Source of the DNA: Candidatus Falkowbacteria bacterium
GTDB taxonomy: Bacteria > Patescibacteriota > Patescibacteriia > Patescibacteriales > UBA12465
Length of the DNA stretch: 64,000 nt
Assembly: GCA_016432645.1 (NCBI GenBank)
Contig: CP066698.1
Location: forward strand, 773,062-837,061
Reading direction: 5' to 3'
The notes under the pieces: model-generated
Told to the model about the DNA's origin: nothing
Databases searched by the model: none
What the model saw: only the letters and a program-made list of their open reading frames with translations
Part shown: positions 4,071 to 60,127 of the stretch, in pieces
Numbering within the stretch: position 1 is the first letter of the stretch
Layout: each line of letters begins with the position of its first letter
Position numbers and translations under genes: made by a program

Positions 4071-4104
4071 AAAAAAAGGGCCCTGGAATTTCTTCTCAGG
4101 ACCC
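4071..4104 (-). terminator. terminator of the 4133..4588 gene
   Basis: Minus strand reads GGGTCCTG...CAGGGCCC (one mismatch) followed by TTTTTTT. Confidence 0.6.
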
Positions 4105-4132
4105 CCCGCAGCAGCCGCGCTACGTCTTAATA

Positions 4133-4588
4133 TTATTTGATGGCCGCTATTCGGTCATCGTAAGGTTCGCTTAGATAAGTTCTGGTCATATCCCAGTGAT
4201 TATCCCACCAGCACAAGGTTGGAAAAAATTTATTTCCGCCGGCATCAGCAAAAATGCTGCCAGCGAAGATAATATTTTTAGTTTTCCAGGTTTCGGGAAT
4301 AGCTTCTGGATGAGCCAGTAAATAGTCCAGCACACAAGCATTTAGAGCGGTATCGCCCAGCTTAGCTAACATTTTGGCACCAGTTGTCGGCGCTGTTTTG
4401 TTTTCGAAAGAAACAGTTTTGATGTTTCCTGGTGTTAGCTGATATGTTCCGCCGGGGTTCCCGGGGATAAGAGTATAACCTTCAGGGACTGAAGGCTTGT
4501 CGTTGCAATCTATATTTTTTGTCTGCGCAAAAGTCAGGCCGGGTAAATATAGCAACCCCATGATTAGTAAAAATACGATTTTTTTCAT
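4133..4588 (-). CDS. secreted hypothetical protein
   Basis: Signal peptide MKKIVFLLIMGLLYLPGLTFAQ. Monocistronic, with its own terminator. Confidence 0.55.
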   Translation of the reverse strand: MKKIVFLLIMGLLYLPGLTFAQTKNIDCNDKPSVPEGYTLIPGNPGGTYQLTPGNIKTVSFENKTAPTTGAKMLAKLGDTALNACVLDYLLAHPEAIPETWKTKNIIFAGSIFADAGGNKFFPTLCWWDNHWDMTRTYLSEPYDDRIAAIK

Positions 4589-13459: not shown

Positions 13460-13984
13460 TTAAATTAAATCTTTAGCACTTAAAATGCCTTCCAATTTTT
13501 CGTCCAAATCTTTCATGTCGGTTGGTCTTTCTTTTTTGATAGTCGCCTTCTTCGGAGCTTCGCCCGCTTCAGTTGATTTTTTAGACTTATCTTTAGCCTC
13601 TTTTTCTTCAACCGCCTTTTTAGCTTCTATTTTGGCGTTGATTTTTTTGTCTTTAGCTAAGGCCGCTTCACTCTTGGCATTTTTGATTATGATTTGGTGG
13701 CGTAAGACATCGGTTGACAATCTTAAATTTTGATCAATGGCTGCCAGAGCGCTTTTTTCTAAATCAAATTCGCATAGGCTGTAATAACCGTAGGCGTTGT
13801 GTTTGATTTCGTAAGCCAATTTTTTCTTTCCCCAGTATTCGCGGTAGCTGATTTGGCCGCCGTTATCGGTGATAACTTTTTCCACGTTACCGATAATGGT
13901 TTTAGCTTCATCTTCGGTAAACTTATTCGGCATAATGAATAAAATTTCATAATGTCCGATAGTCGATTTTTTTGTCTTTGACAT
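13460..13984 (-). CDS. rpsF: 30S ribosomal protein S6 with Lys/Glu-rich C-terminal extension
   Basis: YEILFIMPN...REYWGKKKLAYEI core, in the conserved rpsF-ssb-rpsR order. Confidence 0.85.
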   Translation of the reverse strand: MSKTKKSTIGHYEILFIMPNKFTEDEAKTIIGNVEKVITDNGGQISYREYWGKKKLAYEIKHNAYGYYSLCEFDLEKSALAAIDQNLRLSTDVLRHQIIIKNAKSEAALAKDKKINAKIEAKKAVEEKEAKDKSKKSTEAGEAPKKATIKKERPTDMKDLDEKLEGILSAKDLI

Positions 13985-29929: not shown

Positions 29930-32900
29930 TTAGATTACTCGGAATACTTCTTCTAAAGTTGTTTCCCCGTTTAATACTTTTAAGATGCCGTCTTGGAGCA
30001 TAGTGACCATACCGTTTTTAATAGCTTCTTGCTCAATTTCGAAGTCGGTAACTCTTTCGTTTTGAATTATAGTTTGGATGCTGGGCGACATGGTTATCGC
30101 TTCGTAAAGGCCGATTCTTCCTTTATATCCAATTTGGCCGCATTTTTCACAGCCGGCACCTTTATAAAAAGTTAATTTTTCCGGAATGGTAACCGCCGGG
30201 TTATTAATGCTGGCTAAAATATTTTTTACTTTTTCTAAATCTTCGGGACTGGCTGAAACCTCCTGCCTGCAATCAGGGCAGATGCGTCGGGCTAAGCGTT
30301 GGCCGATAGTATATTCTATGGAGTTAGCCAGCGCTTGGCGTTCAACGCCGAGGCCGACAAAGCGGGAAATTGCGCCAGCGGCGCTGTTAGCATGGATAGT
30401 GGATAAGACTAAATGGCCGGTCATCGCCGCTTCAATAGATATTTTAGCGGTTTCCGCATCTCTAATTTCACCAATCATCATGATGTTTGGATTTTGGCGC
30501 AGTAAGGATTTCATCGCGGAAACAAAAGTATAGCCGCTTGCTTCGTCAATTTGCGTCTGCATTACGCCTGGCAGCTGGTATTCAATCGGATCTTCGACGG
30601 TAATAATTTTAACATCTGGTTTGTTAAGTTGATTAAGAGCGCTGTAGAGCGTGGTAGTTTTACCGCTACCAGTCGGTCCGGTGGTGATAATAATGCCTTT
30701 GTTTTTTTTCAACGCGACTTCTAAAGAAGATAAAGTGGTGCCGGTAATTCCCAATTTTACCATATCTAAATTAGCGGCCTCGGTTGTTAATAAGCGGATA
30801 ACGATGGTTTCACCATAGCCCCCGGAAATAATTGATAAACGGCAGTCAATTTTATGGTCCGGCAGATAAACACTGAAACGGCCGTCAAAGGTGGCGCGCT
30901 TAATGTTGGTTGGAGTGCCAGCTAAAATCTTTACTTCCGATAACAACGGTAAATAACTGGTTTTTGGTAAGGAAAAAATATCATGTAGGATGCCGTCAAT
31001 GCGAAAACGAATCTTGACTTCATCAGCTGTCGGCTCAATATGAACATCACCCGCTTCTCGCAAGACAGCGAGCGTCATGGTTAACCTAATTAAATCAGAG
31101 GTAGGTACTTCTTTGGCTTTTTCTCTGATATCTAAAATATTTTTACTTAATCCTTGAGCCTCTTCCACTTGCTGCGCGCTTATCTTAACACCGCGGCCGA
31201 TGGTCTGCGAGATAACGATATCGTAGAGCTCATTAACATAATCAAAATTACCAATGACGCGATAAACCTCTTCCAGACTAGTTTCGCCGTCCAAAGCTTT
31301 TAAGACGCCATCCTGAAGCATGGTAATCATGCCATTTTCAATCGCTTGCTGGAGAATCTTGAAAGAAGGCGCTTGCTCTACCGTTAATTGGCGAATTTTG
31401 TCGTCTAGGGTAAAAATTTCAAAAATACCGGAGCGCCCCTTATAGCCGGTAAAGTTGCACTGTTCACAGCCGGCGCCCGCTTGAAAAACATTTGGTAATT
31501 TAGCGGGGATGCTGATTCCGGTTTTTGGCGAGATGACCGCCAATATTTTATTTACCAACTCTCCTTCGTCGGCGCTTAAAGTTTTTTCTTGGCGGCAATG
31601 GATACATAAGCGCCTGACTAGACGCTGTCCGATAACTGCATTGATTGAGGGCGCTAAAAAATAGGGCTTTACTCCAATATCGATTAAGCGCGGGATTACT
31701 CCGGCGGCGTCATTAGTATGTAGAGTTGATAACACAATATGGCCGGTAAGCGAGGCCTGCACAGAAATTTCTGCGGTTTCTAAGTCTCTAATTTCACCAA
31801 CCATGACTACGTTAGGATCTTGGCGCAAGATTGATCTTAAGCCTTCAGAAAAACTGAAGCCGTGTTTGCTATCCACCTGGCTTTGATTGATGCCTGATAA
31901 TTGATATTCAATCGGATCTTCCAGAGTAATTATTTTAGTGCCTGATTGGTTAAGTTGATTAATGACAGCATATAAAGTTGTGGTTTTCCCGCTGCCGGTT
32001 GGCCCGGTTGTCAAAATTAAACCGTTCGGTTTAGCAATTTCTCTTTTTAAAATCGGCAAGACTTCCGGCCGGACGCCTAAATTTTCAATATCCAAAGAGG
32101 TCATGGCGGAATCTAAAAGGCGCATCACCACGCTCTCGCCAAAAGCTGTCGGTAGAAAAGAACAGCGGACGTCAACACGACGCTTCTCTAAATAAATAGT
32201 ATAGCGTCCGTCTTGCGGTTTATTTTCAATATTAATTTTAACGCGCGCCAATATCTTTAAGCGGGAAATAATTTTATGCCATTTTTCACGGCTGATAACG
32301 GCCGCTTCTTGCAAAACGCCATCCAATCTCATTCTGATAACTACGCCGTTATCTTCAGCTTCAATATGAACATCACTGGCGCCGACTTTAATAGCGGTTG
32401 CTAAAATTAAGGTGATGACATCAGTGATATTTACGTCATTTATTTTATCATTGAGATTTTTATAACTAGAAATGTCATTTTTAAATTTTTCTAATTGTTC
32501 GGGGCTGATTTCTACGCCGCTTTCATATTTTTTAACTTTTGGCAGCGAACGGTAAGCCTCTAAGGCCGCCTTTAAGCTATTAGGAGAAATAAGGTATAAT
32601 CTGGTGTCGGCAAAATATTGTTCGCTTAAACGCTTTGTTTCTTCCAGGACTTCAGCGCTTGGATTTAAGCAGCCGACTCTAATATTCTTGCCATCATAAA
32701 AAAAACAAATCGCGTTCAATTCTTTGGCGCGATCTTCCTGCATTAAGACCAAGGCCTCGGGGCTAATCGGAAAGCCATAAAGATTAACGTAATCAAGGCC
32801 GAGCTCCTCGGCGTCTCTTTGAGTTTTATGTTCCAGTTCTTTAAGTTTTATTTCCTCTTGCTTCCTCGCAAAAAGACCGGCGACGCTTTCTTCGTCGCCT

Positions 32901-32941
32901 GTCGGATTTAATAAATTTTCGATTGATTCCACCTTTCCCAT
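29930..32941 (-). CDS. tandem double GspE/PilB-type secretion/pilus assembly ATPase
   Basis: N-terminal T2SSE_N-like domain, then two full ATPase modules. Each has Walker A TGPTGSGKTTT, GEIRD, a His box and CxxC...CxxC. Confidence 0.85.
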   Translation of the reverse strand: MGKVESIENLLNPTGDEESVAGLFARKQEEIKLKELEHKTQRDAEELGLDYVNLYGFPISPEALVLMQEDRAKELNAICFFYDGKNIRVGCLNPSAEVLEETKRLSEQYFADTRLYLISPNSLKAALEAYRSLPKVKKYESGVEISPEQLEKFKNDISSYKNLNDKINDVNITDVITLILATAIKVGASDVHIEAEDNGVVIRMRLDGVLQEAAVISREKWHKIISRLKILARVKINIENKPQDGRYTIYLEKRRVDVRCSFLPTAFGESVVMRLLDSAMTSLDIENLGVRPEVLPILKREIAKPNGLILTTGPTGSGKTTTLYAVINQLNQSGTKIITLEDPIEYQLSGINQSQVDSKHGFSFSEGLRSILRQDPNVVMVGEIRDLETAEISVQASLTGHIVLSTLHTNDAAGVIPRLIDIGVKPYFLAPSINAVIGQRLVRRLCIHCRQEKTLSADEGELVNKILAVISPKTGISIPAKLPNVFQAGAGCEQCNFTGYKGRSGIFEIFTLDDKIRQLTVEQAPSFKILQQAIENGMITMLQDGVLKALDGETSLEEVYRVIGNFDYVNELYDIVISQTIGRGVKISAQQVEEAQGLSKNILDIREKAKEVPTSDLIRLTMTLAVLREAGDVHIEPTADEVKIRFRIDGILHDIFSLPKTSYLPLLSEVKILAGTPTNIKRATFDGRFSVYLPDHKIDCRLSIISGGYGETIVIRLLTTEAANLDMVKLGITGTTLSSLEVALKKNKGIIITTGPTGSGKTTTLYSALNQLNKPDVKIITVEDPIEYQLPGVMQTQIDEASGYTFVSAMKSLLRQNPNIMMIGEIRDAETAKISIEAAMTGHLVLSTIHANSAAGAISRFVGLGVERQALANSIEYTIGQRLARRICPDCRQEVSASPEDLEKVKNILASINNPAVTIPEKLTFYKGAGCEKCGQIGYKGRIGLYEAITMSPSIQTIIQNERVTDFEIEQEAIKNGMVTMLQDGILKVLNGETTLEEVFRVI

Positions 32942-35773: not shown

Positions 35774-37162
35774 ATGAAGAAAAGTGAAGCCCAGAATAAT
35801 TTAGAAAAAATTGTATCGTTAGCTAAACGACGCGGATTTGTTTTTCCGTCTTCGGAAATTTATGGCGGCTTTCCGGCCGTTTATGATTTTGGGCCTTATG
35901 GTGTGGAGCTGGCTAATAATATTAAGAAGGAATGGTGGAAGGCGATGACACAATTGCGCGATGATGTCGTTGGTTTGGACTCCGCTATTTTTATGAATCC
36001 GAAAATCTGGGAAGCTTCCGGCCATGTAAAAGGATTTTCTGATCCGCTGACGGAATGCCGGAAATGCCATAGCCGTTTGCGCTTGGACGCCTTATTGGAG
36101 GAAGCGGGGATTTTTGCGGATGAAAAAATGACCGAAGAAGAAATTAATCAAATTTTTGAAGATAATAAGCAAAAAATAAAATGTCCGACTTGCGGGGCGC
36201 AAGACTTTACTCCGGGGAAGAAATTTAATTTATTAGTGCAATCAAATTTAGGCAATTTTACGGGTGACTGGTCCAAGGAACCGACTTATTTGCGCGGTGA
36301 AACCTGCCAGGGCATATATGTTAATTTTAAAAACGTGGTTGATACCGCCAGAGTTAAAATTCCTTTTGGGATTGCGCAAATTGGCAAGGCTTTCCGCAAT
36401 GAGATTACGGCCCGCCAATTTGTTTTTCGGACGCGGGAGTTTGAACAGATGGAGATGCAGTATTTCGTGAAGCCGGGAGACGATATGGCTTATTTTGAAA
36501 AATGGCGGGAAACTCGTTTTAATTTTTATCTTGATTTAGGTATCGCTTCGGAAAATTTAAAGTGGCATAAGCATGAAAATTTAGTTTTTTATGCCCAGGA
36601 AGCTTATGACATTGAATATAATTTCCCCTTCGGCTTTAAAGAATTAGAGGGCGTTCATGCGCGCGGCGATTATGATTTGACCCAGCATAGTAAATTTTCC
36701 GGACAAGATTTGAACTATTTAGATCCAATGACTAATGAAAAATTTATTCCTCATGTCGTGGAGACTTCAGCTGGCGTCGGCCGGACTTTCTTGGCGGTAT
36801 TTTGCGAAGCTTACCAAGAAGAAACAGTGGGCGAAGAAACCAGAACGGTTCTGCGCTTAGCTCCGAAATTAGCGCCGGTTAAAATTGCGGTTTTCCCGCT
36901 CTTGAAAAATAAACCTGAATTAGTGGCTAAAGCCAGAGAAATTTTTGATGATTTAAAAAAGGATTGGCGCTCGGAATTTGATGATAATGGCAATATCGGC
37001 AAACGTTATCGCCGCCAAGATGAAATCGGCACCCCTTATTGCTTAACGGTTGACTTTGATACTTTGGAAAATGGAGAAGTAACCGTGCGCGATCGTGATA
37101 GCATGAAGCAAGAAAGAATAAAAATAAATGAGTTGAGAAAATTTTTTCAAGAAAAAATTTAG
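35774..37162 (+). CDS. glyQS: glycine--tRNA ligase (alpha2 type)
   Basis: RRGFVFPSSEIYGG N-terminus, class II motifs and anticodon-binding C-terminal domain. Confidence 0.95.
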   Translation: MKKSEAQNNLEKIVSLAKRRGFVFPSSEIYGGFPAVYDFGPYGVELANNIKKEWWKAMTQLRDDVVGLDSAIFMNPKIWEASGHVKGFSDPLTECRKCHSRLRLDALLEEAGIFADEKMTEEEINQIFEDNKQKIKCPTCGAQDFTPGKKFNLLVQSNLGNFTGDWSKEPTYLRGETCQGIYVNFKNVVDTARVKIPFGIAQIGKAFRNEITARQFVFRTREFEQMEMQYFVKPGDDMAYFEKWRETRFNFYLDLGIASENLKWHKHENLVFYAQEAYDIEYNFPFGFKELEGVHARGDYDLTQHSKFSGQDLNYLDPMTNEKFIPHVVETSAGVGRTFLAVFCEAYQEETVGEETRTVLRLAPKLAPVKIAVFPLLKNKPELVAKAREIFDDLKKDWRSEFDDNGNIGKRYRRQDEIGTPYCLTVDFDTLENGEVTVRDRDSMKQERIKINELRKFFQEKI

Positions 37163-37212: not shown

Positions 37213-37245
37213 TCTCCACTGCTGACCGCGGTGGAGATTTTTTTT
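37213..37245 (+). terminator. rho-independent terminator after glyQS
   Basis: TCTCCAC...GTGGAGA followed by T8. Confidence 0.75.
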
Positions 37246-37264
37246 GGAAAAAGACAAAAAACTA

Positions 37265-37293
37265 TTGCTAGTTATTTTTATTAGTTGTATAAT
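37265..37293 (+). promoter_or_regulatory. promoter of the small basic protein gene
   Basis: TTGCTA, 17-nt spacer, TGtTATAAT extended -10 (37286..37293). Confidence 0.5.
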
Positions 37294-37313
37294 TTAAGTA
37301 TAAATAAAAAAAT

Positions 37314-37359
37314 AAAAAATTTTTTTTGATCAAAAGAAAAAAACAAAAAATTTTTTTGA
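37314..37359 (+). repeat. two A6-T7/8-GA tracts 31 bp apart in the leader
   Basis: AAAAAATTTTTTTTGA at 37314..37329 and AAAAAATTTTTTTGA at 37345..37359. Confidence 0.6.
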
Positions 37360-37378
37360 GAAAGGAGGTGACATCAAT

Positions 37379-37519
37379 ATGAAAAAGAAAGCAAAAAAGG
37401 TGGTAAAGAAGGTTGCTAAGAAGCCAGCTAAAAAAGTTGCTAAGAAACCGGCTAAGAAAGTTGTAAAGAAAGCCGTTAAGAAAGCTGCTCCTAAGAAGAA
37501 AGCTGCCAAGAAAAAATAA
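37379..37519 (+). CDS. 46-aa lysine/alanine-rich histone H1-like basic protein (absent from ORF track)
   Basis: Translates to MKKKAKKVVKKVAKKPAKKVAKKPAKKVVKKAVKKAAPKKKAAKKK. SD GAAAGGAGGTG lies 7 nt upstream. Has its own promoter and terminator. Confidence 0.7.
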   Translation: MKKKAKKVVKKVAKKPAKKVAKKPAKKVVKKAVKKAAPKKKAAKKK

Positions 37520-37575
37520 TTTTTAAAATTTATTATTTTTTAATAGATTTTATCAATTTAAAAATTATACAAAGG

Positions 37576-37602
37576 CCGTCCTGCGGAATCAGGATGGTTT
37601 TT
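37576..37602 (+). terminator. rho-independent terminator
   Basis: CCGTCCTG-CGGAAT-CAGGATGG followed by TTTTT. Confidence 0.7.
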
Positions 37603-37645
37603 GTGTTTATCGGGGTTTTAGGCGCTGCCATCTATAATAGAATAT

Positions 37646-38497
37646 ATGTTTAAAAGAGATAAAGCCGCCGCGCGCTGCCGAAAAAATAAATATTTTTTAA
37701 TTATTATCGGGCTTATTTTGTTGTCCGGTATTTTTTTATTTATTTTTTTAGCAACCAGAAATTGCTTGCGTGTTTCTTTTATGGATGTCGGCCAAGGCGA
37801 CGCTTCTCTAATTCAAACGCCAACTGGCAAAAACATTTTAATTGATGGTGGACCAGATAATTTAGTATTACATCGTTTGGGAGAAGCTCTGCCTTTTTAC
37901 ATTCGTCGCTTGGATTATATTATCATCAGCCATTTTCATGATGATCATATAATAGGATTGGTAGAAATTTTAAAACGTTATCGGGTCGATAAAATTATTT
38001 TTGTTTCTCCGGATATTTCTTCGCCGGCAGTTGATGCCTTGCAAAGAGAAATTAAAAAATTAAATTTATCGGTTATCAATATCATCGCTAGTGCTAATTT
38101 GCGGCTGGATAATTATTGTTCCTTATTTTTTATCAATCCTGCCAGCTTAAACATAAAAGATAATGCCAATAATTCTTTAGTTGCCAAATTGGATTGCGGG
38201 AATAATAAATTTTTATTTGCCGGTGATAACGAGTCGGGGGCGGAGGCTGCTCTAGTAAAAAGCGATTTTGATTTACGCGCCGATATTTTTAAAGCTTCGC
38301 ATCACGGCTCTAAAACTTCCAATATGGAAAATTTTTTAGAGGCTGTTTCGCCGCAAAAGATAATAATTTCAGTCGGAAAAACTAATCGCTTCGGTCATCC
38401 TAGCCCGGAAGTGTTAGATAGAGTACTTGGCCGAGGGATAGATATTTGGCGGACTGATATCCAAGGAACTAGTCTTATTTTAGCGGAAATTAGGTAG
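37646..38497 (+). CDS. ComEC/Rec2-type metallo-beta-lactamase domain protein (MBL domain only, one TM anchor)
   Basis: VSFMDVGQGDASLIQTP...ILIDGG, HFHDDH, and SHHGS...RFGHP, as in the C-terminal domain of ComEC. Confidence 0.7.
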   Translation: MFKRDKAAARCRKNKYFLIIIGLILLSGIFLFIFLATRNCLRVSFMDVGQGDASLIQTPTGKNILIDGGPDNLVLHRLGEALPFYIRRLDYIIISHFHDDHIIGLVEILKRYRVDKIIFVSPDISSPAVDALQREIKKLNLSVINIIASANLRLDNYCSLFFINPASLNIKDNANNSLVAKLDCGNNKFLFAGDNESGAEAALVKSDFDLRADIFKASHHGSKTSNMENFLEAVSPQKIIISVGKTNRFGHPSPEVLDRVLGRGIDIWRTDIQGTSLILAEIR

Positions 38498-57949: not shown

Positions 57950-58519
57950 ATGCGTAAATTTTTTTTATTTGTTTGGGAGATAGTTAAAGTCGCGAGTATT
58001 TCACTCGCGATAATTTTACCTGTCCGTTATTTTTTGATTCAACCCTTTTATGTTAAAGGCGCTTCTATGGAGCCGAATTTTCACGACCACGAATACTTAA
58101 TAATTGATGAAATTAGCTATCGTTTTGAAGCCCCGACTCGTGGGCAAGTAATTGTCTTCCGTTATCCGAAGGACCCTCAAGAATATTTTATCAAGAGAAT
58201 TATTGCTCTGCCTGGCGAAGAAATACAAATTAAAGATGGTAAAGTTATTATTTATAATGATGCCAATCCTTCGGGCTTTACTTTAAATGAATCCTATTTG
58301 TCTCCTGGTCTGGAAACCATGGACAATACTGGCGCAAAATTAAAGTTAAGCGAGAATGAATATTTTGTCTTAGGTGATAATCGTAACAACTCTAAGGATT
58401 CCCGCAGTTTTGGCGCCGTAGATAAAAGTTTTATTACCGGCAAAGTTCTTTTCCGTGGCTGGCCTTTAGATAAAATAGCTTTATTCAACGCCGCCTCTTG
58501 GCCGCAATATCAAAATTAA
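57950..58519 (+). CDS. lepB: signal peptidase I
   Basis: Catalytic GASMEPNF, KRIIALPGE and GDNRNNSKDSR. ATG at 57950 preferred over TTG at 57929. Confidence 0.85.
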   Translation: MRKFFLFVWEIVKVASISLAIILPVRYFLIQPFYVKGASMEPNFHDHEYLIIDEISYRFEAPTRGQVIVFRYPKDPQEYFIKRIIALPGEEIQIKDGKVIIYNDANPSGFTLNESYLSPGLETMDNTGAKLKLSENEYFVLGDNRNNSKDSRSFGAVDKSFITGKVLFRGWPLDKIALFNAASWPQYQN

Positions 58520-58530
58520 ATCAAAAATTT

Positions 58531-59904
58531 ATGCCTCGAAGAAAAAAGGGTTCGGCGGAAGCGGAAATGACCAAAGCCGAAAAGAAAAATGACAAAACCC
58601 CTAGTCGTTTATTGGGAATGAAAGATTTTACCGGTTTAGAACAGGCTTGTTTTGATTTAGCCTACGAAAAAGCCGCTTACTTGGCCAAGCTTTATAGTTT
58701 TTCTCCTATTAAAACGCCGATTTTAGAAAGTTTTGATTTATATAAAAAAACCACTCGCCATAATAATGATAAAGAAGTTTATTTCGTGGATGGTGAGAAG
58801 AGCGAAAAGATGACTTTAAGACCGGAAATAACTCAAGGCGTCCTGCGCTCTTATTTGGAAACCAGCGAAATCTCCGGTCAAAAATTAGCCCGCCTGTTTT
58901 CTTTTGGTCCAGTTTTTAGACGGGAAAAATTACAAAGCGGTCGTTATCGCGAATCAACGCAGCTTAATTTGGAGCTGATTGGCGAACGCAAGCCAATGGC
59001 CGAAGCCTTATTAATTACCGTCGCCAATAATTTTTTTGAAGAACTGGGAATAAAAGTCCAGGTTCAAGTTAATAGTCTTGGCGGCAGCGAGTGCCGTAAA
59101 GAATATTGCGCTAAACTGTTAAATTTTTATAAAGAAAGAGGCCGGAAATCCAAATTATGCAACACCTGCAAGAATGGTTTAAATAAAAATTGCTTGAGTC
59201 TTTTGGATTGTAAAGATGAATCTTGCATGAAGTTACGGGAAGAGGCTCCTCAATTGGCCGATTTTTTATCAGATGACAGTCGAGAATATTTAACCAAAAC
59301 TTTAGAATTTTTAGATGAATTAAATATTAGCTATAACTTCAACCCTTATCTTGTCCGCGGTTTAAATTATTATAATGATATTGTGTTTGAATTTTGGCCG
59401 GTTAATGATGACGGCACAGTCGGTAAATTAGCCTTGGGCGGCGGCGGACGTTATGATAGTTTAATTGAGTCTTTGGGGGGAGTATCTACTCCGGCAGCTG
59501 GTTTGGCAATTGGAATTGAACGAACAATCGCTAAAATTAAGGATAAAGCGGCTTTGACAAATAAAACAGAAGAGGATATAGTATTTATTGCGCAATTAGG
59601 CGATCAGGCCAAACTTAAAGCTTTGCAATTATTTGAAGATTTAAGAAAGGCCGGATTTAATGTTAGACAATCATTTGCCTCTGATAGTTTAAAGTTTCAG
59701 CTTGAAGAAGCAGTGGCGATTAAGGCCAAAACTAGCCTTATTTTAGGCAAAAAAGAAATAATGGACGGAACTATCCTGATGCGCGATATGGACTCAGGAA
59801 CGCAAGAGACTTTAGTTTTTAAGAAAGTGAGAGAGCGTTTAGAGCGTAAAGATAAATTAATAAAAAAAGTTAATAATAGAAAGGAAGGTGCATTTTATGG
59901 CTGA
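58531..59904 (+). CDS. hisS: histidine--tRNA ligase
   Basis: Class II motifs (LRPEITQG, FRREKLQSGRYRE, GGGGRYD) and anticodon-binding C-terminal domain. ATG at 58531. Confidence 0.9.
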   Translation: MPRRKKGSAEAEMTKAEKKNDKTPSRLLGMKDFTGLEQACFDLAYEKAAYLAKLYSFSPIKTPILESFDLYKKTTRHNNDKEVYFVDGEKSEKMTLRPEITQGVLRSYLETSEISGQKLARLFSFGPVFRREKLQSGRYRESTQLNLELIGERKPMAEALLITVANNFFEELGIKVQVQVNSLGGSECRKEYCAKLLNFYKERGRKSKLCNTCKNGLNKNCLSLLDCKDESCMKLREEAPQLADFLSDDSREYLTKTLEFLDELNISYNFNPYLVRGLNYYNDIVFEFWPVNDDGTVGKLALGGGGRYDSLIESLGGVSTPAAGLAIGIERTIAKIKDKAALTNKTEEDIVFIAQLGDQAKLKALQLFEDLRKAGFNVRQSFASDSLKFQLEEAVAIKAKTSLILGKKEIMDGTILMRDMDSGTQETLVFKKVRERLERKDKLIKKVNNRKEGAFYG

Positions 59905-60127
59905 TTTTAAAAGAAAACCAGGCGAAAGCTTTGAAAGTTTCTTAAGAAAATTTAAGAAAGGTTTAAAGAATAGCAAGCGTTTAGAAAAAGCTAGATCCAA
60001 GAAACATCTAGAACCAAAACAAACCAAACGTCTCTTTAAGAAAAGAGCTCTGTCTGGTTTAGCCTTGAGCAAAAAAAATGAATTTTTAAGAAAAACCGGA
60101 AAACTTGCGGAAACTACCAGAAGATAA
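59897..60127 (+). CDS. rpsU: 30S ribosomal protein S21
   Basis: Basic 76-aa protein with the ESFESFLRKFKK pattern. SD AAGGAAGG upstream. 8-nt overlap with the hisS stop. Confidence 0.75.
   Translation: MADFKRKPGESFESFLRKFKKGLKNSKRLEKARSKKHLEPKQTKRLFKKRALSGLALSKKNEFLRKTGKLAETTRR

Follow-up and report, generated by a model that had tools for sequence, protein, structure and literature searches.

The described systems closest to the gene reported here are of two kinds. The first comprises histone H1-like proteins and tails, of which the known tails bind DNA non-specifically (PMC5676037, PMC9239181, PMC3553676). Chlamydial Hc2 (hctB) consists of pentamers, each combining two basic residues with spacers of A, V, T or P; it varies in frame in the number of its repeats, and condenses DNA while also binding RNA (PMC2848022). 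The PAKK/KAAK tail of mycobacterial HupB is needed for nucleoid association in vivo (PMC5676037), and peptides with the KPAA repeats of AlgP bind DNA, AlgP itself localising to polyphosphate granules and spacing them (PMC9239181). The second is the translation system of the Bacteroidia, in which the ribosomal proteins bS21, bS18 and bS6 sequester the 3' tail of 16S rRNA and genes lack a Shine-Dalgarno (SD) sequence; in Flavobacterium johnsoniae rpsU is the sole gene that has one and is preferred by ribosomes lacking bS21, and in other Bacteroidota the residual strong SDs concentrate in ribosomal-protein genes (PMC7797042, PMC9976891, PMC13000453). Here we describe a small gene that recalls both, a 46-codon open reading frame (ORF) for a lysine-rich peptide, in a 64,000-nucleotide (nt) stretch of the genome of an uncultured Candidatus Falkowbacteria bacterium from groundwater (assembly GCA_016432645.1, contig CP066698.1, positions 773,062 to 837,061, forward strand), henceforth the window; Falkowbacteria are part of the Parcubacteria group of the Patescibacteria. 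On the evidence of the sequence, this ORF is a genuine and conserved gene, with conserved expression signals and a composition under selection. That it is a real micro-gene whose peptide would be a non-specific nucleic-acid-binding polycation, with the chromosome as its main target, is the reading we tentatively favour, at a probability of roughly 0.45.

The ORF (37379..37519 of the window, + strand, ATG to TAA, translation MKKKAKKVVKKVAKKPAKKVAKKPAKKVVKKAVKKAAPKKKAAKKK) sits in a 483-nt gap between the gene for a single-chain class II glycyl-tRNA synthetase upstream (GlyRS; 35774-37162, with the Pfam domains tRNA-synt_2b and HGTP_anticodon) and a metallo-beta-lactamase-fold gene downstream (37646-38497, + strand). 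An initial annotation, made from the sequence without database searches, had placed the ATG at 37379 and quoted a product of 46 amino acids (aa) with 25 lysines, and in all of this it matched exactly. The 46 residues comprise 25 K, 10 A, 7 V, 3 P and 1 M, with neither acidic nor aromatic residues, giving a peptide of about 5 kDa, with an expected mass of 5,050 Da or, without Met1, 4,919 Da, and with a net charge of about +24.5 and an isoelectric point of 11.4. Its units are KKxx and KKxxx, where x is A or V and sometimes P or T, so spaced that basic residues recur with a period of 4-5, and they include the motif PAKK twice and KAAK once. For such a K/A/V repeat peptide a globular fold is impossible. 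The hydrophobic moment is 0.53 at 90 degrees per residue and about 0.03 at 100 degrees; given that it peaks only at 90 and all but vanishes at 100, a helix formed by the peptide would carry lysines all round and present no amphipathic face. An AlphaFold2 model from the single sequence consists of one long helix (pLDDT 82), which as weak evidence fits the helix propensity of A/K sequences. No signal peptide or hydrophobic segment was found in the peptide, alanine and valine being its sole hydrophobic residues.

Conservation was assessed in 14 genomes, namely that of the window, six Patescibacteria loci that a GlyRS scan of one genome per GTDB species showed to retain the gene order (GlyRS identity 77-87%) and seven contigs carrying GlyRS homologues (81-85%), with an overall range of 77-100%. 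All 14 of these species-level genomes, which belong to the Candidatus Falkowbacteria clade, encode a small lysine-rich ORF about 200 nt downstream of GlyRS. The products are 46, 45, 46, 34, 64, 72, 56, 45, 39, 41, 40, 42, 36 and 31 aa long, which makes 12 distinct lengths between 31 and 72 aa, and the frame is never lost; the broken frames for which the initial annotation had proposed to look in relatives occur in none of the 14. From the conserved ATG every orthologue reads K, A and V with an occasional P, T or R, the repeats being expanded, contracted and rearranged between species. When the 637 residues are pooled, K accounts for 53%, A for 19%, V for 17%, P for 3.5% and R for 1.9%, and D, E, C, H, N, Q and aromatic residues are absent altogether; the basic fraction of individual orthologues ranges from 50 to 62%. 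The AKKP repeat singled out in the initial annotation is not a conserved feature, proline being absent from five of the 14. Upstream of the ORF, the alignment of the 14 loci reveals an invariant AAAACTATTGC (the -35 box with the five bases 5' of it), an invariant TATAxT (-10), GGxGGTGA and ATG, separated by a 17-nt spacer and an A/U-rich leader of about 80 nt that vary freely. Downstream, the stop codon is conserved in 14 of 14 species, the 3' untranslated region (3'UTR; 37520..37566) in 12 orthologues, and the terminator is kept in position with compensatory changes at 7 of 28 pairs. The 3'UTR is better conserved across species than either the coding repeats or the 5'UTR. In relatives whose GlyRS is at most 73% identical the gene order around GlyRS is wholly different, and because synteny is lost there the absence of the micro-gene beside GlyRS is uninformative. 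On groundwater contigs, murB and secA flank a separate K/A/V-repeat micro-ORF (L085 3961-4092; also L086 and L087) of 43 aa, or 32 aa from an internal Met, which has its own terminator and no SD; on account of this case stand-alone K/A/V micro-ORFs may extend beyond the present clade, to other lineages and contexts.

The ORF is not explained by chance. No dinucleotide-preserving shuffle of the intergenic region out of 2000 yielded an ATG-initiated ORF that reached both 30 aa and 45% Lys, and about 650 kb of non-syntenic loci contained no comparable ORF. Four independent Logan assemblies, which carry a gene call for exactly this peptide, represent two strains. Between these the transcription unit is 93-100% identical, the ORF differing at two sites, both synonymous AAA/AAG exchanges, and the 3'UTR and terminator at none of 87 nt; the flanks are 74-84% identical in non-coding DNA, 92% at the 3' end of GlyRS and 78% at the 5' end of the downstream gene. 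Codon choice within the ORF is likewise distinctive, AAG making up 52% of the lysine codons against 23% in 40 long genes of the window (p = 0.0017). We considered a high-expression codon bias and rejected it because ribosomal-protein genes show background usage, the AAG share being 25% in six translation and replication genes (four ribosomal proteins, EF-P and SSB). Runs of A do not exceed 6-8 nt and are shorter than background codon usage predicts in seven of the seven orthologues examined (P = 0.003-0.17 each), and both the use of AAG and the short A-runs fit selection against poly(A) slippage in a translated message. With signals invariant across all 14 orthologues, the proposal of a genuine small gene with its own expression cassette is borne out, and the peptide is presumably both translated and abundant. 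Its description as unannotated applies to some records only, since gene callers do call the peptide or its orthologues: these appear in NCBI, ENA and JGI records of some genomes, and are skipped in the NCBI record GCA_035408405.1 (L097) and in an ENA record (L098). The inconsistency extends to identical DNA, for at 4078-4173 JGI calls a 31-aa orthologue in L096 that GCA_035408405.1 and ENA do not call in L097 and L098.

The expression signals define a compact unit. A GlyRS intrinsic terminator (37213..37237, + strand; a 10-bp stem containing 6 GC pairs, with a T8 run after it) stands before the micro-gene and would thereby shield it from read-through. The promoter (37259..37293, + strand) consists of the block AAACTATTGCTA with the -35 box TTGCTA (37265-37270), the variable 17-nt spacer and the -10 box TATAAT (37288-37293); TTGCTA-17-TATAAT (37265-37293) matches at 10 of 12 positions, and the full motif occurs once in the window. 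Transcription is predicted to start at about 37300, and the A/U-rich 5' leader (37294..37359, + strand) is unstructured, with a fold z-score of -1.07, the same as shuffles. At 37360..37371 (+ strand) follows an extended SD, GAAAGGAGGTGA, of which 12 nt pair with the 16S rRNA 3' tail. The tail against which this 12-nt complementarity is judged is that of Bacillus subtilis and many other bacteria. The 3'UTR, which is AT-rich and has a predicted A/U-only hairpin (37524-37552), leads into a terminator of the gene's own. Hence, of the full cassette described in the initial annotation, the GlyRS terminator, the promoter site, the SD and the dedicated terminator stand, and only the label of an extended -10 has to be dropped, since the TG lies immediately next to TATAAT, without the intervening base of TGnTATAAT, and the promoter tool reports no TG. 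Judged by these signals the micro-gene is apparently strongly expressed. A -10-like hexamer located 5-11 nt before the ATG was found at 13 of 61 genes of the window, which suggests that leaderless mRNAs are frequent in this genome. The metallo-beta-lactamase-fold gene has such a TATAAT at 37633-37638, 7 nt ahead of its ATG at 37646.

The micro-gene terminator (37567..37606, + strand) has a core stem at 37576-37597 with the loop CGGAAT and a U-run at 37598-37602, and pairing between an A-tract and a U-tract lengthens the core into an extended stem spanning 37567-37606. It folds at -30.6 kcal/mol (z = -5.7), a stability reached by none of 200 shuffles. The terminator is probably bidirectional, and its symmetric A-tract/U-tract form is accounted for by a convergent gene that ends there in several relatives. 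This minus-strand gene, encoding 149-235 aa, lies between the micro-gene and the beta-lactamase-fold gene at L007 5949-6398, L008 5998-6705, L088 4363-4935 and L092 4374-4964 and is absent from the window; no Pfam hit is on record for the two copies looked up. The symmetric arms of the terminator, TATACAAAGG...CCTTTTTGTATA, create on the minus strand a TTTGTATAAT that resembles the -10 region of the micro-gene itself. As a promoter this candidate was rejected, its -35 being poor (CTGATT) and its presence being explained by the A-tract/U-tract symmetry of a bidirectional terminator. The loop CGGAAT (37584-37589) is the same in 8 of 12 aligned terminators (the window and seven relatives) despite covarying stems, which is unusual for a plain intrinsic terminator. 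We likewise rejected as a by-product an antisense ORF (37330..37509, - strand; 59 aa, rich in F, L, A and T), which begins with TTG and has no ribosome-binding site: K, A, V and P codons give no antisense stop, and such a frame is open by construction. An Rfam search of the window returned seven tRNAs only, with nothing at the micro-gene locus and no rRNA genes.

The SD of the micro-gene stands out against its genome. For each start codon we computed the pairing energy between the 22 nt preceding it and the 16S tail 5'-CACCUCCUUU-3', assumed to be canonical. The genome is essentially SD-free, a statement that covers the 64-kb window and 13 short related loci. Across the window, 62 long genes pair with a median energy of -0.35 kcal/mol and at best -6.6 kcal/mol, and the other genes remain without a strong SD even when any start within the first 80 codons is allowed. 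At -16.2 kcal/mol the SD of the micro-ORF ranks first when every start codon of the 64-kb window is scored on either strand, and lies beyond the limit of -13 kcal/mol below which an SD counts as extended and strong in Bacteroidota (PMC9976891). The contrast recurs at all 14 loci, where the micro-ORF scores -15.0 to -16.6 and 77 flanking genes have a median of -0.3 and a minimum of -6.6. The genes of the window show another start context, in which G is depleted from -10 to -1, A reaches 56-61% at -6 to -4 and T 82% at -1; A-rich positions are also seen at -13 to -11. The near-perfect SD reported in the initial annotation is thus present, and is more than that, namely an outlier in an SD-lacking genome that is shared only with a probable rpsU.

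The latter (59879..60127, + strand) encodes a 76-aa protein, called from the ATG at 59897, and its SD, GAAAGGAAGGTG at 59879-59890 (-11.7 kcal/mol), marks the only other genuine strong-SD gene start in the window. The 76-aa protein is matched by bS21 in Pfam, TIGRFAM and the PDB, in each case below the curated cut-off, and no competing family appears. As the region upstream of rpsU is identical in every assembly found, comparison of that region is uninformative. The probable rpsU overlaps the end of the HisRS gene (58498-59904) by 8 nt, which places its SD inside the HisRS coding sequence, and a RelA/SpoT-family gene is convergent with it on the opposite side. The window also encodes a bS6 (13460-13984, - strand), which in Bacteroidia contributes, with two other proteins, to the pocket that receives the 16S 3' tail; it is 174 aa long, with a K/E/A-rich C-terminal extension of about 75 residues past the Pfam S6 domain (residues 11-99). 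On SD usage in Patescibacteria we found no literature beyond the statements on 16S genes and ribosomal proteins of Parcubacteria cited below (PMC9297842).

Searches with the peptide itself recovered no family. A Pfam scan with E-values up to 1 gave only a chance NNH2 match, and NCBIfam only sub-threshold noise, the window peptide having no Hc2 match; the best orthologue reached 10.9 bits against Hc2 (NF038052, E = 0.39, cut-off 135), and one orthologue reached 9.9 bits against the Burkholderiales/Bordetella H1-like family of the BpH1 type (NF038053, E = 0.83, cut-off 80). Among sequences in the PDB there were chance matches only, of which cupiennin-1a (E = 0.13) was the best. Neither phmmer with the peptide nor hmmsearch with a profile of seven orthologues found anything at E <= 0.001 among 5.8 billion proteins, and at E <= 10 their matches were confined to unrelated proteins containing K/A/V stretches; 1.84 billion representatives, scanned in full with HMMER, yielded three unrelated large repeat proteins only, and exact look-up in a collection of 15 billion proteins found none of the seven peptides tried. 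Low complexity defeats such tools. Ribosomal-protein families were not matched in Pfam, NCBIfam or the chains of solved ribosomes, and no other protein of the window was found to carry an A/K-rich tail. A resemblance of the kind proposed in the initial annotation, there to H1 tails, Hc1, AlgP and BpH1, is supported with respect to H1 tails, Hc2, BpH1 and AlgP in composition, short repeats, length polymorphism and the PAKK/KAAK motifs; membership of these families is not supported.

If the peptide is made, binding to polyanions is close to unavoidable for a polycation of about +25 without a fold. The sequence of events that we consider most plausible would begin at a sigma-70-type promoter and yield a short monocistronic mRNA of about 300 nt, from about 37300 to about 37602, ending at its own hairpin terminator, on which the extended SD would recruit the ribosome to the ATG. 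The peptide would then act as a sequence-non-specific polycation, its lysines contacting the phosphates of polyanions in the manner of the H1 C-terminal tail, chlamydial Hc2 and the HupB tail. Chromosomal DNA would be the most probable target, the neutralisation of its backbone charge favouring compaction in a very small cell. We infer nucleic-acid binding, with DNA rather than RNA as the main target, and favour the chromosome because a lysine-only, H1/Hc2-like repeat architecture is combined with free variation in length. The ratio of lysine to arginine is 340:12 in the pooled orthologues and 47:22 in three ribosomal proteins of the window, and a marked preference for lysine is the usual mark of H1-like DNA binders, in contrast to RNA binders, which use arginine. 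Several observations weigh against the chromosome as target. Composition alone cannot separate DNA from rRNA, tRNA, mRNA or polyphosphate; an SD shared only with a probable rpsU suggests the ribosome no less than the nucleoid; the neighbourhood, in which an arginyl-tRNA synthetase (ArgRS) gene precedes that of GlyRS and TyrRS completes a set of three aminoacyl-tRNA synthetase genes, also points to the ribosome; uS19 of Parcubacteria bears an A/K-rich C-terminal tail (PMC9297842); no homology to any characterised DNA-binding protein emerged from Pfam, NCBIfam, the PDB or the searches of billions of proteins; and the polylysine gene is found in one clade only.

Several of these points lead to a doubtful but serious alternative, in which the peptide is a ribosome- or rRNA-associated factor, be it a small ribosomal protein peculiar to the lineage, an assembly chaperone or a hibernation-type factor, whose synthesis would be coupled to a free anti-SD tail in the way described for bS21 in Bacteroidia; ribosomes whose tail is free, such as those lacking bS21, would translate it preferentially. 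It draws on the confinement of strong SDs in an essentially SD-free window to the micro-ORF (-16.2) and the probable rpsU (-11.7), on the repetition of this contrast at 14 of 14 orthologous loci, and on the Bacteroidota precedents of the rpsU exception in F. johnsoniae and of strong SDs remaining in ribosomal-protein genes elsewhere (PMC7797042, PMC9976891, PMC13000453), besides the uS19 tail (PMC9297842) and the TyrRS, ArgRS and GlyRS neighbours. However, lengths of 31-72 aa and shuffled repeats are unlike proteins fitted to a defined rRNA pocket, arginine is nearly absent where it supplies about one-third of the basic residues of ribosomal proteins in the window, no ribosomal-protein family is matched, and the strong SD may merely maximise output. 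Moreover, the anti-SD motif was detected in just 48% of Parcubacteria 16S genes, in a group in which bS21 is often absent (PMC9297842). A wider proposal, which we regard as unlikely, is that Falkowbacteria and perhaps other Patescibacteria have SD-blind translation with an anti-SD regulon of at least two genes, rpsU and the micro-gene, the peptide being either a ribosome-linked factor or a nucleoid protein tied to ribosome completeness, made preferentially by ribosomes with a free tail. If true, this would be a second, independent case of control by specialised ribosomes, in a lineage with reduced ribosomes.

Other roles for a peptide of this composition fare less well. It is rather improbable that the peptide binds another polyanion, for instance polyphosphate granules, or serves as a bulk counter-ion in place of polyamines: AlgP, with its KPAA repeats and H1-tail-like composition, does reside on polyphosphate granules (PMC9239181), KPAA units occur in the orthologues L006, L008 and L010, and charge is extremely dense (+24.5 over 46 residues), but the neighbourhood showed neither polyphosphate nor polyamine genes, the AlgP N-terminal domain is absent from the peptide, and nothing is specific to this target. 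Quite improbable is an exported cationic antimicrobial or cell-penetrating peptide of an episymbiont acting on membranes or the host cell, notwithstanding that the best PDB match, itself not significant, is a cationic peptide of spider venom, cupiennin-1a (E = 0.13), and that lysine-rich Ku tails have reportedly been made into cell-penetrating peptides (PMC10739243); the peptide lacks a signal peptide, a hydrophobic segment and an amphipathic helix face, and its gene has no adjacent transporter or immunity gene. That the ORF is untranslated, having arisen by chance in low-complexity DNA or belonging to a non-coding, purine-rich RNA, might be entertained given that A-rich DNA keeps frames open (as in the antisense ORF and in the +1 frame of L006) and that neither Rfam nor any protein family is matched; against this, SD, ATG and stop are invariant in 14 species, the composition is always K/A/V, strain differences are synonymous only, codon choice shortens A-runs, and 0 of 2000 shuffles gave a Lys-rich ORF, which renders it hardly credible. 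We give next to no weight to a functionless peptide from a lysine-codon attenuator leader of the metallo-beta-lactamase-fold gene, for all that an ORF dominated by one codon family is followed in the window by a terminator hairpin and a same-strand gene, because the downstream neighbour varies, which rules out a leader role for one fixed gene (it is convergent in L007, L008, L088 and L092, with ORF and terminator still kept), no antiterminator pairing overlaps the ORF and the terminator folds independently, a separate -10 box lies 7 nt ahead of the downstream gene's ATG, and conservation of amino-acid composition goes beyond the lysine codons.

Patescibacteria are tiny cells with reduced genomes, in which a stand-alone peptide resembling an H1 tail would be a minimal chromatin or nucleic-acid-coating protein. 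With a lysine every 2-3 residues, such a peptide would be digested into pieces of 1-4 residues and is invisible to standard tryptic proteomics, a caveat that the AlgP study shares (PMC9239181), and this blindness, together with inconsistent annotation, means that the class is probably under-counted. An SD-free genome with two exceptions in turn raises the question of whether a specialised-ribosome mechanism exists outside the phylum of the Bacteroidia and beyond bS21. Elsewhere in the window, 29930-32941 (- strand) encodes a 1003-aa protein with two T2SSE regions (PilB-like secretion/pilus ATPase) and an MshEN domain, followed by a 326-aa protein without a family match.

Set against the systems with which we began, the micro-gene resembles rpsU of the Bacteroidia in being a short gene for a small, very basic protein that carries an extended strong SD (-16.2) in an SD-lacking genome. 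It differs in that its product is not bS21 and matches no ribosomal-protein family, and in that rpsU is the single exception in F. johnsoniae, whereas the window has at least two; sequestration of the tail has been shown for Bacteroidia only. The small ribosomal proteins bS22 and bL37 and the A/K-rich tail of Parcubacteria uS19 share with the peptide small size and a very high basic charge. Small polybasic ribosomal proteins, however, have a fixed length and a defined sequence and use arginine freely, unlike the peptide, the length of which varies more than two-fold and from which arginine is nearly excluded.

The likeness to the H1-like tails is closer. The tails of eukaryotic H1/H5, of mycobacterial HupB, Ku and TopA and of Pseudomonas AlgP and PhaF are K/A-rich with some proline, and the peptide carries PAKK and KAAK as does the HupB tail; KPAA units number 1-3 in the orthologues L006, L008 and L010 and are lacking in the window peptide. 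As in H1-like tails, intrinsic disorder, or a helix on binding, would be expected. Here, however, the tail stands alone, without a winged-helix domain (Linker_histone), for which 46 residues are too few, and without an HU, Ku or alpha-helical AlgP N-terminal domain. In comparison with the H1 tail it has no S/TPKK, its V is about as common as A, much of the proline is replaced by V, and lysine makes up 53% in the clade as against about 40%. Of the chlamydial proteins, Hc1 (hctA) has, besides a lysine-rich C-terminus, an N-terminal dimerisation domain (Pfam Hc1) that was not found in the peptide. Hc2 is the larger protein, with 165-237 aa, about 40% basic residues, 36-aa super-repeats and conserved flanking regions, where the peptide has 31-72 aa, tetramers as well as pentamers with two Lys, 50-62% basic residues and no flanking domain; of the two, Hc2 is the one for which DNA condensation has been shown. 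As in Hc2 and BpH1, nearly the whole protein consists of short, acid-free, Lys-rich repeats with evenly spaced charge (PMC2848022), and as in Hc2 these repeats are consecutive and vary in number in frame, giving 12 lengths among 14 orthologues.

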